A DNA stretch of 64,000 bases from Blastocatellia bacterium (GCA_035634255.1 DASQDI010000089.1:45142-109141), one strand, 5' to 3'; positions 41,265-51,410 are shown, numbered from the stretch's first letter. The notes: generated by a model not told the origin, from the sequence alone. Made by a program: numbers and translations.

Positions 41265-43022
41265 GTGAGCAAGACGACCTACACACTCATCACAACCGGG
41301 GCCGGTCTCGACGAAGCGATTGAGCGGATCTCTCGCCACGACCGGATAGGCGTGGACACGGAGACGACGGGGCTCGACCCCCGCCGCAGCCGCGTGCGCC
41401 TGCTTCAGATCGCGACGCCCGAAGAGAGTTTCGTGATAGACCTCTTTCAAGTCAGGGCGCTCGACAACCCGCGCCTGCGACAGGTCTTCACGTCCGACAA
41501 GCCGGAGAAGGTATTTCACAACGCGAAATTCGACCTGAAGATGCTGCTGCACCACTTCGGGCTTGAGGTGCGCGGGGTCTTCGACTCCATGCTGGCGAGC
41601 CAGTTGATCGGCGCGGGGAGCAGGGTGGAAGGCGGGCACGGGCTCGCCTCGGTCGCGGAGCGGCACCTCGGCAATGCGGTCGATAAGTCCATGCAGATGA
41701 GCAACTGGGGAGGCCCCCTCACGGACTCGCAGTACGAGTACGCCGCGAACGACGCCGCGCTTATGCTCCCGCTCAAGGAGAAGCTCTCGTCGAAGCTCGA
41801 AGAGCTGCGCCTGACGGACGCGGCGAAAGTCGAGTTCGATTGCGTGCTGCCGATAGCGGCGATGGAGCTCGCGGGGGTGGCAATCGACGCGGAATGCTGG
41901 CGCAGGCTGGTCGTCGATGTCGAGCGCGCGCACGACATTTTGTCGAAAGAGCTGAAGCAGGAATTGTCGGCGGGTATCCCCCAGCTCACGCTCTTCGACG
42001 AGCCTCCGAACATCAACCTCGACAGCCCGACGCAGATAACCGAGGCGCTCGCCCGGATGGGAATCAAGGTGGAAGGGACGCGAAGCTGGCAGCTACAGCC
42101 CCTCGCGAAGGAGCACACGGCGGTCGCCAAGCTGCTCGAATACCGGAGCGCGCAGAAGGCCCTCTCCAGCTACGGCAACTCACTGCTCGACCACATCCAC
42201 CCGGTGACGGGCCGCATACACGCGGACTTCCGGCAGATCGGGGCGACCGGCGGCCGGATGAGCTGCTCGGACCCGAATCTTCAACAGGTGCCGAACACCC
42301 CCGAATACCGCGTCTGCTTCCATGCGCCGGAGGGGCGCAAGCTCGTCATCGCCGACTATTCGCAGATCGAGATTCGCATACTGGCCGACTGGTCGCAGGA
42401 CACCGCGCTAGTCAAAGCCCTGCTCTCGGGAGAAGACCTTCACTGCGTCACGGCGAGCCAGATGTTCGGCATCCCGCTCGATCAGGTATCCAAAGACCAG
42501 AGGTCGGCGGCCAAGCAGCTCAACTACGGCATCATGTATGGCCTGGGCGCGCCGGGCCTGTCGGCGAGGATAGATTGCTCGGTGGAGGAGGCCGAAAGCC
42601 TCATTCGCAAATACTTCGCGGCTTATAGCGGCGTCGCCTCGTGGCTGCGCGAGGCCGGGGACCGCGCCGTGCGCGAGAAAGAGAGCCGCACGCGCTCGGG
42701 CCGCCTGATCTACTTCACCTTCGACGGGAATGACCGCTCGCAGGTGGCCGCGACCCAGAGGCTCGGCAAGAACGCGCCCATTCAAGGGAGCTCGGCCGAC
42801 ATAATCAAGCGGGCGCTGACCCTGCTCTACGACGCCCTGAAGCCGCTCGACGCGATGATCGTCAACTGCATACACGACGAGATCGTGGTCGAAAGCTCGG
42901 AGGCCGACGCCCAGTCCTGCGCCGAGATACTCGAACACAAGATGGTGGACGCGGCCCGCGAGTTTATAAGCAGCGTGCCGGTCACGGTCGACACGGTGAT
43001 CAATCAGGCATGGATCAAGTGA
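41265..43022 (+). CDS. family-A DNA polymerase with 3'-5' exonuclease domain but no 5' nuclease domain (short PolA-like)
   Basis: 585 aa; Exo I DTETTGLD; pol motif A DYSQIEIRILA, motif B RSAAKQLNYGIMYG, motif C HDEIVVE. Confidence 0.85.
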   Translation: MSKTTYTLITTGAGLDEAIERISRHDRIGVDTETTGLDPRRSRVRLLQIATPEESFVIDLFQVRALDNPRLRQVFTSDKPEKVFHNAKFDLKMLLHHFGLEVRGVFDSMLASQLIGAGSRVEGGHGLASVAERHLGNAVDKSMQMSNWGGPLTDSQYEYAANDAALMLPLKEKLSSKLEELRLTDAAKVEFDCVLPIAAMELAGVAIDAECWRRLVVDVERAHDILSKELKQELSAGIPQLTLFDEPPNINLDSPTQITEALARMGIKVEGTRSWQLQPLAKEHTAVAKLLEYRSAQKALSSYGNSLLDHIHPVTGRIHADFRQIGATGGRMSCSDPNLQQVPNTPEYRVCFHAPEGRKLVIADYSQIEIRILADWSQDTALVKALLSGEDLHCVTASQMFGIPLDQVSKDQRSAAKQLNYGIMYGLGAPGLSARIDCSVEEAESLIRKYFAAYSGVASWLREAGDRAVREKESRTRSGRLIYFTFDGNDRSQVAATQRLGKNAPIQGSSADIIKRALTLLYDALKPLDAMIVNCIHDEIVVESSEADAQSCAEILEHKMVDAAREFISSVPVTVDTVINQAWIK

Positions 43023-43080: not shown

Positions 43081-44100
43081 TTACTGAGGCAGCTTACTAA
43101 GGCGTTCCATCGCTTCCTGCTTCCACCTTTCATCGGACGTTACGTCGATGAACTGCTGCAAGTCCCTGCGCGCGGCGTTGTAGAACCAGGCGCGCACGTT
43201 TGCCAGCCCCCGGTTGAACAGAGCCTCTTGAAAATCGGGCTTCTTTTCGAGCGCCTCGCTGAAAGCCGTGATAGCTTCCGGGAACTGTTCGAGCTGGTAC
43301 AGGGCGACCCCCGTGTCGTTCAGGAGTTCCGGCGTGGCCCCCGCGCGGGCCGAAATCTCCCGCAATATCGAGAGGGCCCTTTGCGCGTCTCCGGGCTTGT
43401 CACGCGAAAGGTAAATCCTCGCCAGAGCCAGCCGCGCCTCGGCCGGCGCGGATTCATCTTCAGCAAATTCCAACTTGTTTAACGCGATATCGAACTGCAA
43501 TTCGTCGTTTGTGCGATCCCCGCGAGTCACCGGGTTGGGCGCGTAATCGAACCCGCCCGAGATGCGCAGATTGATGCGCCTGTCGTTTTTGATGGCCGAC
43601 GCAAGGGCCTGCATTCCCTCGTCCTGGGCGTTTCGCGTGTCCGTCACCATGTAGCCGATGGCTACCGCGGCGATGATGACCAGGGTGGCCGCGAAGCCGA
43701 GTTGGGCGTAAGAGACGAAAAACCCCGACCGCGCCGGCTTGGCAGGCTCCGGCTCGGGCCGCGAGGTGAACTGTTTCGCCTCGTCGTCCGCGATGAGCGC
43801 GAGGACTTTGTCCGTCTGCCGCCTGATAAGGTCGTCGGACATCGACCGGGTGACCGCCTCACCGTTTTCGACCTCTTCGCCCGAGATGCGCGCGAATAAT
43901 ACGAGAGTCTCGCGGCAATCGCCGCAGTCAGCCATGTGCGCCTCCAGCCTCGCGCGCCGCTTCGGGGAGACCCTCTTTTCGGCGTACGACAGCAGCTCGG
44001 CTTCGTCGGGACATTGCGATATTTTATTTGCGCCCGGCGCGGAATAATTGCCGAATTTTAATTTATCAGCCAGTAGGCTGGCGACTTCTTGTAATTTCAT
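43081..44100 (-). CDS. zf-HC2 anti-sigma-factor-like membrane protein with TPR repeats
   Basis: 339 aa; HMADCGDC zinc-finger; one TM (FAATLVIIAAVAIGYMV); C-terminal TPR-like repeats. Confidence 0.7.
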   Translation of the reverse strand: MKLQEVASLLADKLKFGNYSAPGANKISQCPDEAELLSYAEKRVSPKRRARLEAHMADCGDCRETLVLFARISGEEVENGEAVTRSMSDDLIRRQTDKVLALIADDEAKQFTSRPEPEPAKPARSGFFVSYAQLGFAATLVIIAAVAIGYMVTDTRNAQDEGMQALASAIKNDRRINLRISGGFDYAPNPVTRGDRTNDELQFDIALNKLEFAEDESAPAEARLALARIYLSRDKPGDAQRALSILREISARAGATPELLNDTGVALYQLEQFPEAITAFSEALEKKPDFQEALFNRGLANVRAWFYNAARRDLQQFIDVTSDERWKQEAMERLSKLPQ

Positions 44101-45368: not shown

Positions 45369-45936
45369 GCCGGTTTCCGGAGCGGGTCTGTAAGCCGAAT
45401 TCTGTGCTCGCTCCCGGCCGCGCGGCCCGCGGCATTGCCGCGAATCGCGAGCCGGTCGCAAAAGCGATGATCATTCATCTAGGCGGCGGATTGCTCCGCT
45501 CGCTCAAGCGACCTACCCGGAGGTCGTTTCAGCCTTGCGCGCTATAGACCGAGTAGAAAAGCGAAACGAACATAGCGCTCTTTTGCTCGATCTGCGCGCG
45601 CAAGGCTGAATCGGACGGGCCGTCCTGATGACGCCTCCCTATTTGGTCTTGCACCGCGGAGAGTTTGCCTAGCCACGGAGTGTCACCACCCGTGCTGGTG
45701 GGCTCTTACATTAAGCCCTTTCGGGCCCCACCGTTTCACCCATCACCTGTGCCCGAAGGCCATCGGCTGGTCTCTTCTCTGTTGCACTTGTCGTCGGGTC
45801 GCCCCGCCTGGCCGTTAGCCAGCCCGCTGCCCTGCGGTGTTCGGACTTTCCTCTCGCCCTCTATCAATCTCGAACCCGAATCATCAGATTTGAAATATCC
45901 TGAAAGCCAGCGACCATCCGACCCACTCCAAAAACC
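45369..45936 (-). ncRNA. rnpB: RNase P RNA (bacterial type A) with expansion segments
   Basis: Minus-strand sequence contains GAGGAAAGTCCGAACACCGCAGGGC, AGTGCAACAGAGAAGAGACCAGCCGATGGCC, GGGTGAAACGGTGGGG...TAAGAGCCCACC, CAAATAGGGAGG, CCTAGATGAATGA and ACAGAATTCGGCTTACAGACC, which align block-for-block with E. coli M1 RNA; TGGTATACT extended -10 just upstream (45943-45951). The ends are approximate. Confidence 0.85.
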
Positions 45937-46077: not shown

Positions 46078-48804
46078 TTAATCACCGCCCGGCGTATCGT
46101 CTACCTGCGGGGCCACGCTGTTGGACAGGACATCGCCCGGATTCGTGACGCGCAACTGGAAGCGCGTCGGCCCTCCCAGGGCGACGATCTTGTTCGCGGG
46201 CAGCGTGATGATCAGCTTTTCGGGGGTCATCCTGACGGGGACCTGCTGTCGGACCACCAGGCCGTCCTTGATGAATTCGACTACCGCGCCATCCCTAAAG
46301 TTTTTGCCCTCCATAACGATGCGCCTGCGGTCCTCGTCCCCCGGCGCGGGCTTGATGAGCGCCCCGGTCACTTCCGGGCCTTCGACCTTCAGGAGGTGAT
46401 CCTCCGAGGGAATGCCCTCGCTGTTATTCGGGTTGATGACCTGAAACTTAAGGTCTCCGGGCTGCGCCAGCAGCGAGTTCAATTTGCCCCCGAGCTTCAC
46501 GACTATGCGCGTGTTGGAGATGAAGCGGATGCGCCTCGGGCTGACCTGAAACTCATCGCCGCCGGGGCCTTTGATCTTAACGCGCGCGCCCGGCCTGAAG
46601 TTGGCCCCGTGGATGCCGACCTTCATTTCCTTCTGACCCGCCAGCACCGCCCCCGGACCGACGCTCTCGATGGAAGGGCCGACGGCGCTCAGTTCTTTTA
46701 GATTGGACTCGATATCTCCGGGGTTCAGGACGCTCACTTTCAGGGTGCCGACGACCTGCGACAGCCGGCCCGGCACTCTCAGCTTTATCAGGCTTCCGCC
46801 GAAAAACAGGACATTGCCGGGCGCGACCATCTGATCATTTATCTTCACGCGCGCGCCCGGCCTGAAGTTCTCGCCGAGGATCTTCAGAGTGAAGCTCCCC
46901 GCCCCGGCGACCACATCCTTCTGGTTCGTCCTGAGTTCATCTATGGTCGGCCCGAAGACCGTCAGGTCCATCTCGTTCGACTCAAGCGAGGGCACGGCCA
47001 TGTCCCTGACCCGGACCTTGAGCACCCTCACGGAGTCCGCGAGACTCTTCGGCACCACGGCTTGCAGCTCGACCCCCGCGTACTTCGTATTCAGTTGCTG
47101 GCCGGCGACGTGGATGGCCGAGCTGGGCCGGAAGTTCTTCCCGAGCACTCTGAGCGTGAAGGCGCTGCTGGGGCCGGGGATGCGGCCCGGCTTCAGCTTA
47201 TCTATCACCGGCTTAAGCGGGTCCACCCGCAGGGGTAACGAATTCGAAAGAGCGCCGCCCGGCGTTTTCACCTGCACGGAGAGGTCGCGCGGCTGGGTCA
47301 GCAGAGCTTTGCGAATCGTGCCTTCCAGGACCGCCCCCCCGCGCATGAGCTTCGCCCTGATCTCCTCACCTTCCACGACGAGCGCGGACCCTTGCACGAA
47401 GTTCGTGCCTTCGACTATCAGCCTGAGATTCTGAGGGCGAGACTGTTGGACCACGGAGGGCGAAAGGGCCATGATCGCCGGGGCCCCGGAGCCGGGCTCG
47501 TCGGCCCCATCCGAAGCGGCCTGATCGAAAGATACGATGACGACTTCGTCCCCGCTCGGGGCGGACCTGATCGCCATCACGGTGCGCGATTTTTCGTTCA
47601 CCGCGATGCGCCTCAACTCGCTCCCGATCACCTGATGCGACTCGAGCTCTCCCGTCACGGTGTCGAATGCGAACAGGACACCCGTGGCCGACGCGACGAA
47701 GGCCACGGAAGCGTCGCCGCCGAACACGACGTTGTTAGAGCGAGAGAACTCTATGCCATCAGGAGGGGTGAATTGAGACCTGACCGCAAGCTGACCGCCC
47801 AGATTGACGAGGACCGTGACGCCGCCCGCATTCTCGCCCTTCTTTTCGCCCGCGCGCGTTACCCCGATCAGTTCCTCGGCGCCGGCCGAGGCCACCGTAA
47901 TTTTACGAGGCGAAGAGACCGGGGCGCTTCCCAGTAAAGCTCCGCTTGTCGAATCGACGGCCATGAGCTTATCACCCGCCGAGGCCGCGATGTACACGGT
48001 CCTTCCGTCCGAACTGAAGGCCGGATTGTTCGAATCCTCGAAGCGCGCGTCGCCGGGGCTGAAGCTCTCTGTCAGGGTCAGGTGCCCCTGCCCATCGACA
48101 TTGATGAGAGATAGCGTGTTCGATACGGAACTGGCGACGGCCAGACGGCGCACGCCGCCTTTATCGTAAAGCGTCGCCTCCGACGGCCTCGCGAGCAACG
48201 GCAGGCGCGAGACGAGCGCCCCCGACTCCACGTCGAACGACAGGAGCGAAGGCTCGTTGAAACTCGCGGCGATAAAACAGAGCTTGCCGTCTTCCGAGAG
48301 CAGGGCGTGCGTGGAAGGGGTCAGCAGAGCGTCCTGAGGCAGGACCAGCAGCGAGCGCAGCTCAAGGTCGCGCGGCCTGCCGGCGTCGATAATGCTAACG
48401 GTCGCGGGGTTGCCGTTCGCCGGGTCGTTGAGAGCGGGGACCGCGATGAGGCGCTGCCCGCCCGACTCCAACATCGTGATCGGCCCGATTGTCTCGCCCA
48501 CGACCATCGAGGAGAGCAGCTTGCCCGATGTCGCGCTGAAGGAGATCAGCGAGCCGCCCGTGATTGAAGATACGAATCCCGTCTTGCCGCTCGCCGTGAT
48601 CACAGGCTGCGCGCTCTCGTCAAGTATCGCGTGCGACGGCAGGGAGATGCTCCGCGATTCGCCGAGCTGCGCGCGGTTGCCGCTCCCGTGAGCCACCGCA
48701 AGGCTCAAGGCCACAAGACACGATATTATCGTCGCCTGTCTTTTATTAAGGCTCACTGTATTGACTCCTACTTGCGAAACATGGCGCCGGGGAGGCCGGG
48801 GCAT
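46078..48804 (-). CDS. large secreted protein: N-terminal beta-propeller followed by multiple IPT/TIG-like Ig-fold repeats
   Basis: 908 aa; signal-like N-terminus; repeated L.G.NFRPG..V.I...G modules (at least 5). Confidence 0.8.
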   Translation of the reverse strand: MPRPPRRHVSQVGVNTVSLNKRQATIISCLVALSLAVAHGSGNRAQLGESRSISLPSHAILDESAQPVITASGKTGFVSSITGGSLISFSATSGKLLSSMVVGETIGPITMLESGGQRLIAVPALNDPANGNPATVSIIDAGRPRDLELRSLLVLPQDALLTPSTHALLSEDGKLCFIAASFNEPSLLSFDVESGALVSRLPLLARPSEATLYDKGGVRRLAVASSVSNTLSLINVDGQGHLTLTESFSPGDARFEDSNNPAFSSDGRTVYIAASAGDKLMAVDSTSGALLGSAPVSSPRKITVASAGAEELIGVTRAGEKKGENAGGVTVLVNLGGQLAVRSQFTPPDGIEFSRSNNVVFGGDASVAFVASATGVLFAFDTVTGELESHQVIGSELRRIAVNEKSRTVMAIRSAPSGDEVVIVSFDQAASDGADEPGSGAPAIMALSPSVVQQSRPQNLRLIVEGTNFVQGSALVVEGEEIRAKLMRGGAVLEGTIRKALLTQPRDLSVQVKTPGGALSNSLPLRVDPLKPVIDKLKPGRIPGPSSAFTLRVLGKNFRPSSAIHVAGQQLNTKYAGVELQAVVPKSLADSVRVLKVRVRDMAVPSLESNEMDLTVFGPTIDELRTNQKDVVAGAGSFTLKILGENFRPGARVKINDQMVAPGNVLFFGGSLIKLRVPGRLSQVVGTLKVSVLNPGDIESNLKELSAVGPSIESVGPGAVLAGQKEMKVGIHGANFRPGARVKIKGPGGDEFQVSPRRIRFISNTRIVVKLGGKLNSLLAQPGDLKFQVINPNNSEGIPSEDHLLKVEGPEVTGALIKPAPGDEDRRRIVMEGKNFRDGAVVEFIKDGLVVRQQVPVRMTPEKLIITLPANKIVALGGPTRFQLRVTNPGDVLSNSVAPQVDDTPGGD

Positions 48805-48847: not shown

Positions 48848-48977
48848 GAAATGGCTCTTACGGGTGCCTCAACATCACGACAGATCGGAGGCCGAATGAG
48901 GAAGCATTTTATCCGCCTGGCATACGTCTCAACGCGCATGGCAAAATATTGTTCCGAATAGTCAATGGGAGGGTGTC

Positions 48978-49472
48978 ATGAAATTCAAGCAGGTAATCGC
49001 TCTTTTGCCATTAGTGCTAATGCTGGTGCTGGCCGCCGCCCCGCCTTCGCGGGCGGCCCAACAGAAGCCGGAGACGAAGCAGAAGGCGGACCGACAGGCG
49101 TCCGCGAAACACGAGGCTCCCGACGCGGCGGAAGCCGACAGAATCACCGTCGAAGAGCTCAAAGCTAAGATCGAAAAGAATGAGCCCGTCACGGTCATCG
49201 ACGTGCGCAGCGAGGGCTCGTACGAATCGTCGGACAAGAAGATCAAAGGGTCCATTCGCATGCTCACGGACGACATCGAGTCCCGCGTAAAGGAGATCCC
49301 GCGCGACACTCTGGTCGTCACCTACTGTACCTGACCGAGCGAAGCCACAAGCGCCCGTGCGGCGCAGGTACTCATCGGTAAAGGTTACAAGAACGTGCGC
49401 GCGCTCAAAGGCGGGTGGGACGCCTGGGTCAAGGCGGGAGGGCAGGTCGAGCCTAAAGACCCTTCGAAGTGA
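48978..49472 (+). CDS. secreted single-domain rhodanese read through an in-frame TGA at 49332-49334 (candidate selenoprotein, otherwise pseudogene)
   Basis: Track ORF stops after ...LVVTYCT; the same frame continues PSEATSARAAQVLIGKGYKNVRALKGGWDAWVKAGGQVEPKDPSK to TGA 49470-49472, giving the conserved rhodanese C-terminal half (GGWDAW). The catalytic Cys is at VVTYC, two residues before the TGA. Confidence 0.6.
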
Positions 49473-50648: not shown

Positions 50649-51410
50649 GTGAACAGGGAGGACATAAAGAAGCTGATCGAGGAAGTGCGCGCGGGCCGCA
50701 TGGGCGCGGACCAGGCCGCGGATAAATTGTCGCACCTCCCTTACGAGGACATCTCCTTCGCGCGCGTGGACCACCACCGCGAAATGCGCGTCGGGTTCCC
50801 GGAAGTGATCCTCGGCGAGGGCAAGACCGTCGAGCAGATATTCAAAATATCCGAGCGCATCCTGCTCAACAGCTCGAACCTTCTCATCTCGCGCACGTCA
50901 AAGGAGGTGTTCGAAGCGGTCTCGAAGATCGCCCCCGACGCCGAATTCAGCAGGGACGCGCGCATGGTCTCGGTCATCCGCGACCGCGCGGAGCGAGGGG
51001 AGGGGACGATAGCCGTCATCTCCGCGGGCACGTCGGACATACCCGTGGCGGAGGAGGCGGCCATCACCGCGACCGCCATGGGCAACCGCGTCGCGCGCGT
51101 CTACGACGTGGGGGTCGCCGGCATTCACAGGCTGTTCGGCGCGCGGGCGGAGTTCGAATCGGCGCGGGTGATCATAGTCGTGGCGGGGATGGAAGGCGCG
51201 CTCCCGTCGGTCGTGGGCGGCCTCGTGCCCGTGCCCGTCATCGCCGTGCCGACGAGCATAGGCTACGGGGCGTCTTTCGGCGGGCTGGCGGCCCTGCTCG
51301 GCATGCTGAATTCGTGCGCTTCAAACGTGACCGTGGTCAACATCGACAACGGCTTCGGCGCGGGCTTCGTGGCAAGCCTCATTAATCGGAAGCGGCCCGG
51401 AGGCGGGTAA
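50649..51410 (+). CDS. larB: LarB-like (PurE-related, COG1691) nickel-pincer cofactor biosynthesis carboxylase/hydrolase
   Basis: 253 aa, GTG start; PurE-like core [17 protein letters not shown]...[18 protein letters not shown]...[13 protein letters not shown]. Confidence 0.7.

Follow-up and report, generated by a model that had tools for sequence, protein, structure and literature searches.

The internal UGA of a rhodanese gene from a Blastocatellia bacterium is almost certainly read as selenocysteine

The rhodanese gene at positions 48978-49472 of the window (the whole stretch of Blastocatellia bacterium DNA analysed here, 64,000 nucleotides, GCA_035634255.1 DASQDI010000089.1:45142-109141) contains an internal 'stop' that is almost certainly read as selenocysteine. 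Very probably, the locus is an intact gene whose product is a secreted rhodanese selenoprotein with one domain, of the CxU ('LYCAU') form, the UGA being decoded as selenocysteine 119 (Sec119). Feature coordinates are collected in Table 1.

Translation of the window shows that the TGA at 49332-49334 is the sole interruption of the frame running from ATG 48978 to 49470, and the coordinates and sequence originally given for the gene and its TGA prove exact when re-read. The N-terminal half ends ...RDTLVVTYCT just before this TGA, with the TGT codon of Cys117 at 49326-49328, and the frame then runs PSEATSARAAQVLIGKGYKNVRALKGGWDAW... to the second TGA at 49470-49472, the complete post-TGA translation being PSEATSARAAQVLIGKGYKNVRALKGGWDAWVKAGGQVEPKDPSK. 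The loop motif of the window, V-T-Y-C-T-U, corresponds to [hydrophobic]-Y-C-x-U following the central β-strand. When the TGA is read as a residue, Pfam PF00581 covers profile positions 1-101 of 102, and this near-complete match across the TGA indicates that the stop sits inside one intact domain. At the opposite end of the protein, the N-terminus MKFKQVIALLPLVLMLVLAAAPPSRA resembles a signal peptide, with a maximum 10-residue Kyte-Doolittle value of 3.1, and is followed by a charged, low-complexity linker that extends to about 49140. The same crude hydropathy test is passed by 64 of 85 family members, most failures apparently arising from the use of the first in-frame start, which may lie too far upstream.

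Table 1. Positions of the rhodanese gene, its elements and neighbouring features in the window
Feature	Position	Strand	Basis or detail
Shine-Dalgarno-like GGGAGGG	48967..48973	+	4 nt 5' of ATG; read from sequence
ATG start codon of rhodanese gene	48978-48980	+	read from sequence
Full selenoprotein gene (very probable)	48978..49472	+	164 codons including Sec119; translation, Pfam, NCBIfam
Predicted Sec-type signal peptide	48978..49055	+	MKFKQVIALLPLVLMLVLAAAPPSRA then AQQ; putative cleavage site
Rhodanese domain, residues 57-152	49146..49433	+	Pfam PF00581, E 4.3e-16
C-x-U triplet, active-site loop	49326..49334	+	TGT Cys117, ACC Thr118, TGA Sec119
Possible lower SECIS stems CCGA/UCGG, GCC/GGU	49335..49378	+	MFE; predicted for window sequence only
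Bacterial SECIS core hairpin	49351..49365	+	5-bp GCGCC/GGCGC, 5-nt loop CGUGC
Terminal stop TGA of rhodanese gene	49470-49472	+	translation
Downstream cupin gene, 123 aa	49518..49889	+	NCBIfam and Pfam cupin matches
Divergent 908-aa gene, choice-of-anchor Z repeats	46078..48804	-	NF058597 CoaZ_rpt_PGGG, E 6e-46
Bacterial RNase P RNA class A	45375-45929	-	Rfam RF00010, 234.8 bits, full length
585-aa 3'-5' exonuclease/DNA polymerase, PRK14975 type	41265-43022	+	629 bits, just under cut-off 640
LarB (nickel-pincer cofactor biosynthesis)	50649-51410	+	294 bits

The TGA is a conserved feature of the family, well in excess of what chance would produce. The homologue set comprises 86 genes, drawn from 80 loci of a one-genome-per-species scan, loci fetched earlier and the window itself, and the orthologue alignment proposed in the original prediction reveals TGA at the Sec119 column in 57 genes, TGT or TGC in 29, and TAA or TAG in none of the 86. 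Carriers of the TGA form include MAGs labelled Blastocatellia/Pyrinomonadaceae, Acidobacteriota, Thermodesulfobacteriota/Deltaproteobacteria, Nitrospirota, Chloroflexota and others, as well as the isolate Pyrinomonas methylaliphatogenes K22. Protein searches return full-length homologues reading ...Y-C-x-C-P-x-[ED]..., together with about two dozen gene calls, down to ~50% identity, that end exactly at ...Y-C-[T/A/S]; in the DNA of several of these shortened calls, the stop is in each case an in-frame TGA, beyond which the conserved second half of the domain is still encoded. In the Cys-type homologues, Cys is invariant at both loop positions (the equivalents of 117 and 119). Downstream of the TGA, comparison of the 53 distinct TGA forms that lack a one-codon deletion yields no in-frame stop in the next 28 codons and entropies of 0.60 bits at the first codon position, 0.61 at the second and 1.37 at the third. 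Since variation falls mostly at third positions and stops are absent, the post-TGA codons are translated and maintained by purifying selection.

These data bear on two options listed in the original prediction, a pseudogene and a sequencing error, both of which are rejected on the recurrence of TGA in 57 of 86 genes, the coding-like downstream sequence and a hairpin specific to the TGA forms. A nonsense-mutated pseudogene, in which the TGT or TGC codon of the second loop Cys has become TGA and the gene is now decaying, would require a single substitution and would agree with public gene calls that hold a 118-aa fragment only and with database records for the cultured relative that hold the short product only. 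It is nevertheless extremely improbable, because the same TGA occurs in 57 genes from several phyla whose downstream halves are intact, selected and stop-free, because a structured element is conserved in the TGA forms only, and because the curated selenoprotein family model NF041203 matches the protein. The likelihood of a sequencing or assembly error at the Cys codon is close to negligible: a single-base difference in an apparently metagenome-derived window would suffice to produce it, but dozens of unrelated assemblies carry TGA at the homologous codon, and the window possesses the SECIS hairpin that the Cys forms lack. The Logan assembly of SRR9290673 is likewise identical over 661 bases, TGA included, although it may stem from the same reads as the window and is not an independent confirmation. 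TGA in 57 genes, combined with selected, stop-free downstream halves, effectively excludes both explanations.

Individual loci display further arrangements of the gene. In the Thermodesulfobacteriota MAG contig DATIGG010000312.1 (L073:3367-3375), the loop is encoded as TGA-GCx-TGA, the codon of the first loop Cys also being TGA. Two TGA-form paralogues occur on a single deltaproteobacterial contig, separated by 7.3 kb (L072:10205 and L072:17526), and the Blastocatellia MAG DATBMY01 (L011, L028) contains a Sec form alongside a Cys-type paralogue with the loop C-A-C-S-T-D-G-G. A distinct group of Pyrinomonadaceae Cys-type orthologues (L029-L050) is marked by the insertion RLxFPPLKD and lies in a different, likewise conserved operon with genes of ~444 and ~252 aa upstream and of ~196, 227, 248 and 152 aa downstream, seen at 11-18 loci.

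Immediately 3' of the UGA, the core hairpin begins 16 nt past the last UGA base, with a UGA-to-loop spacing of 21 nt and an invariant loop G at 49357 that occupies loop position 2 within the loop consensus N-G-[U/G]-N-N. The published bSECIS model specifies an apical loop of 3-9 nt, a stem of 4-16 bp and a G in the first two loop positions (PMC13188914), together with a distance of 16-37 nt from the UGA and an MFE <= -7.5 kcal/mol (PMC13188914). The window hairpin, whose core has an MFE of -7.9 kcal/mol (-15.7 kcal/mol with the lower stems), agrees with all four published criteria (loop/stem, G, spacing and MFE).

Comparison across the family ties this element to the TGA forms. All five stem pairs are present in 53 of 57 TGA forms versus 1 of 29 Cys forms, and when 56 distinct TGA-form sequences are aligned without gaps, with the stem in columns 20-24 and 30-34, 97.9% of stem cells are paired. 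Specifically, pair 21-33 is C-G in 33 sequences, U-A in 21 and mismatched in 2, and neither change alters the encoded residue (AGC/AGU, Ser; GCG/GCA, Ala), which indicates that the covariation reflects selection on RNA structure and not on protein; the C-G/U-A exchange may derive from few evolutionary events. Within the hairpin, third codon positions have an entropy of 0.58 bits, compared with 1.54 bits outside it. The mean MFE of the region +10..+48 is -11.3 kcal/mol in TGA forms versus -8.0 in Cys forms (Mann-Whitney p 5e-6), and that of the 19-nt core is -8.8 versus -2.5 kcal/mol. With the bSECIS criteria, the 53/57 versus 1/29 distribution and the covariation in agreement, the hairpin singled out at 49351-49365 in the original prediction was the right one.

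The conserved element is confined to this core. Family-wide conservation does not extend to the lower stems, as RNAalifold retains the core alone and pairing between flanking columns 17-18 and 35-36 is seen in 49% of cells, and a conserved bulged U is not demonstrated in the 56-sequence alignment. The window fragment folded by itself gives an unremarkable z-score of -1.07; lone-sequence folding is uninformative, so the support for the SECIS is comparative. An Rfam scan of the window reports RNase P RNA only and no bacterial SECIS, which is uninformative either way.

The machinery for selenocysteine was sought in the window and in all fetched loci. ARAGORN detects no tRNA or tmRNA gene in the 64-kb window, and hence no tRNA-Sec, while NCBIfam models identify no selA, selB or selD among 19 window ORFs, a set that takes in all those of a size fitting these proteins; the 339-aa window ORF at 43081-44100, considered as a candidate, is a TPR protein. 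A tblastn search with E. coli SelA, SelB and SelD against all fetched loci locates selA in P. methylaliphatogenes K22 (L018:16136-17536, minus strand, NZ_CBXV010000008.1), where TIGR00474 scores 563 bits with a cut-off of 268. This selA lies 5.6 kb beyond the 3' end of the K22 TGA-form rhodanese gene, whose product is 48% identical to the window protein. Across the 1.29 Mb of fetched flanks, tblastn finds selA in L018 only and neither selB nor selD, the weak 'SelD' matches being ThiL; a 339-aa AIRS-domain protein beside the L003 orthologue, considered as SelD, is also ThiL. No selB, selD or tRNA-Sec is seen in the 20-kb K22 locus, and ARAGORN reports no tRNA-Sec in the 1.29 Mb, where it finds 3 tRNAs in total and some may be missed. 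Acidobacteria are already on record as selenoprotein users (PMC1794560), and a literature search on Pyrinomonas and selenocysteine returned nothing relevant. Selenocysteine machinery is shown for the lineage through the relative K22 only.

A C directly after UGA makes for weak termination, and 50 of 57 family members have this context. It is one of the points in favour of a third alternative, in which the UGA is decoded other than as Sec (as near-cognate Cys or Trp, or under an alternative code) or mainly terminates translation, leaving a functional 118-aa product; the machinery has been seen only in a relative, and termination is expected to compete with Sec insertion at such a codon under selenium limitation. 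This alternative is very unlikely. The gene's own terminator at 49470-49472 is also TGA, so that UGA is a normal stop here; a 118-aa fragment would lack half of the rhodanese fold; the conserved hairpin fits a SelB-dependent model; the relative carries selA; and homologues with Cys at the same column form the hallmark Sec/Cys pair. Selenocysteine recoding of C-x-U, which the original prediction had placed among its options, is upheld by the conserved TGA, the Cys homologues, the TGA-specific covarying hairpin and the curated-family match.

The curated family in question is NCBIfam NF041203, an equivalog model named 'rhodanese_LYCAU, rhodanese-related (seleno)protein'. With U entered as C, the read-through protein reaches 120.8 bits, a narrow margin over the cut-off of 115, and spans model positions 14-126 of 126. 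Blastocatellia-labelled relatives score 112-133 bits, and the two core members scored, one from Nitrospirota and one from a deltaproteobacterial MAG, reach 170-191 bits. By these profile scores, the window gene is assigned to a peripheral branch of the NF041203 family composed mostly of Blastocatellia-labelled MAGs. CxU is one of five catalogued forms of rhodanese selenoprotein and is listed as predicted in reviews (PMC13188914, PMC9312934); a review attributes it to Zhang & Gladyshev 2005 (Bioinformatics 21:2580), and a UxU variant of the family is known from Olavius algarvensis symbionts (Zhang & Gladyshev 2007, PMC1976440). The literature searched contains no experimental demonstration of Sec insertion in the CxU rhodanese family. 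The view that the position of the TGA is unusual therefore does not hold, since CxU is already catalogued (NF041203; PMC13188914, PMC9312934); it is true only relative to UxxS and UxxG. The window gene is almost certainly a real selenoprotein gene, of a known family, and its novelty is low.

The placement of the catalytic residue was assessed by alignment and by structural modelling of a Cys homologue, P0003, that is 63% identical to the window protein. Its AlphaFold model has a pLDDT of 92-98 over the domain, and its best Foldseek matches in the PDB are all rhodanese domains, with E down to 1.7e-9. In this model, at a local pLDDT of ~97, the strand ends at Tyr and is followed by a six-residue coil, C-T-C-P-T-E, while the helix begins two residues earlier than in GlpE; a coil of six residues is the length of a canonical cradle, and the first Cys heads it. 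Cys117 aligns with GlpE Cys65 at an hhalign probability of 97%, and both the 6pfz alignment and the RDxxVVxYC motif shared with the canonical rhodanese P0120 place Cys117 on the catalytic column. Alignments anchored on the upstream strand imply two extra residues. Ungapped HMMER alignments to 6mxv (CGGGFRS) and 1yt8 (CAGRTRS), which are anchored on the downstream helix, instead put the TGA on the catalytic Cys column; this assignment was dropped after hhalign, the upstream motif and the AlphaFold secondary structure were considered. On the model and these alignments, Cys117 is rather probably the canonical catalytic residue, with Sec119 at loop position +2. The original placement of the TGA two residues past the catalytic Cys is thus probably correct on 6pfz, GlpE, P0120 and the P0003 model, with the 6mxv and 1yt8 alignments in conflict. 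As both positions are invariant in the Cys-type homologues, Cys117 and Sec119 most likely act as a working pair. The active-site loop, C-T-U-P-S-E, lacks basic residues and has an invariant Glu, features that speak against an anionic substrate of the classical thiosulfate type.

In the proposed mechanism, the hairpin at 49351-49365 would recruit SelB-GTP-Sec-tRNA(Sec) during translation, as expected of such an RNA element under the bacterial mechanism, and the UGA at 49332-49334 would specify selenocysteine 119 instead of terminating translation. Judging from the N-terminus, the signal peptide would direct a mature protein of ~14.5 kDa across the cytoplasmic membrane by the Sec pathway. Cys117 and Sec119 would most likely work as a thiol/selenol pair, either cycling via a selenenylsulfide or carrying sulfane sulfur or selenium.

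Conservation of the genomic surroundings is seen mostly in Blastocatellia-labelled loci. The cupin gene begins 45 nt past the rhodanese stop and may be co-transcribed with the rhodanese gene, and a cupin gene likewise sits next to the rhodanese gene at no fewer than 11 loci, mostly in Blastocatellia-labelled MAGs. The 908-aa protein encoded divergently contains four choice-of-anchor Z repeats and is syntenic in 19 loci, nearly all Blastocatellia-labelled. In a cross-phylum comparison of neighbourhoods, no neighbour is kept beyond the Blastocatellia-type loci, so the context offers no family-wide functional clue.

Other arrangements occur in particular genomes. In two Pyrinomonas genomes (L018:10817-14256, plus strand; L016:7244-8674), a mer-like operon of merR, a merT/P-like gene, a 130-aa ORF and merA (TIGR02053, 502.6 bits; cut-off 454) directly follows the CxU rhodanese gene, in the position occupied by the cupin gene in the window. 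In an Anaerolineales locus (L077), a MerA-like flavoprotein disulfide reductase, 33% identical, lies ~80 nt after the rhodanese gene. A DedA/SNARE-associated domain (PF09335) is fused to the rhodanese in P0080, P0084, P0085, P0088, P0090 and others; these fusions are Cys forms only, with the loop L-Y-C-T-C-P-S-E-A-T-S-A-K. The rhodanese domain of P0091, which is of the DedA-fusion type and itself without DedA, scores 77 bits on NF041203, below the cut-off.

The mer operon directly downstream in the two Pyrinomonas genomes, the DedA-fused loop of the Cys-type relatives and the acidic loop suggest a further reading, in which the Blastocatellia-type branch is not a sulfurtransferase and is instead a secreted selenenylsulfide (C-x-U) redox or metal(loid)-handling protein of aerobic soil Acidobacteriota. 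This reading is speculative and rather unlikely. If true, it would provide the first physiological role for a widespread, never-characterised selenoprotein family, in organisms whose gene callers cut the gene at the UGA.

Such truncation is routine. Gene callers end the protein at codon 118, with about two dozen such TGA-form calls in metagenome and genome collections, and the metagenome calls P0001, P0002, P0005, P0011 and others are likewise cut at the TGA. The K22 orthologue (L018:10001-10351) is represented in GenBank, RefSeq and UniRef by a 116-aa fragment only (CDM66542.1, WP_041977860.1, UniRef100_A0A0B6X0M6), named 'rhodanese-like domain-containing protein'. The value of the present analysis lies mainly in correcting the annotation of a routinely mis-annotated member of a catalogued selenoprotein family, and it holds nothing surprising for a selenoprotein specialist. 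Recognition of the full-length selenoprotein marks this Blastocatellia organism as a probable selenocysteine user and adds a peripheral soil-acidobacterial branch to a family catalogued since 2005. Moreover, the cultured carrier P. methylaliphatogenes makes the function of the family and the roles of Cys117 and Sec119 experimentally testable.

Compared with known systems, the window protein shares the rhodanese fold of GlpE and PspE, whose canonical loop is C-x-x-G-x-[RST], but its Cys stands two residues further from the AAQ helix motif, and its loop, devoid of Arg and Lys, has Sec, Pro and an invariant Glu at +2, +3 and +5, respectively. Assignment as a GlpE/PspE-type thiosulfate:cyanide sulfurtransferase was rejected on scores of 40.1 bits versus 102 for GlpE and 20.1 versus 102 for PspE, and on a loop, C-T-U-P-S-E, without a basic residue. 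The predicted signal peptide indicates that the protein is probably exported, like PspE and unlike the cytoplasmic GlpE. At the RNA level, the hairpin resembles the E. coli fdhF-type SECIS and the bSECISearch consensus in being a coding-region stem-loop just 3' of the UGA, with a small apical loop bearing G then U/G and with spacing and MFE in range, whereas the window family conserves only a 5-bp upper stem and not the lower stems.

Among selenoproteins, the closest counterparts are the other members of NF041203, with which the window protein shares a single rhodanese domain of ~125 residues behind a signal peptide, the [LVIT]-[YF]-C-[AST]-U loop followed by P-x-E-x-T-S-A, the ALKGGWxxW motif and a SECIS hairpin at the same codons. 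It differs from them in reading T-Y-C-T-U instead of L-Y-C-A-U, in its C-terminal tail, GGQVEPK, and in the greater length of the charged linker that follows its signal peptide. Rhodanese forms 1, 2 and 4 (UxxS, UxxG) and TsoB (NF045694, a rhodanese/DsbD fusion with UxxxxU) also carry Sec in the rhodanese active-site loop, all as predictions; the window protein scores 28.7 bits on TsoB against a cut-off of 805 and is not a member. Judging from their motifs, taken unaligned, Sec in those forms would replace the catalytic Cys at the first loop position, whereas the window protein retains the Cys and adds Sec at +2. The Olavius UxU variant, which the Thermodesulfobacteriota locus L073 matches, belongs to the same family and uses the same two loop positions, the window differing from it in having Cys (TGT) at the first.
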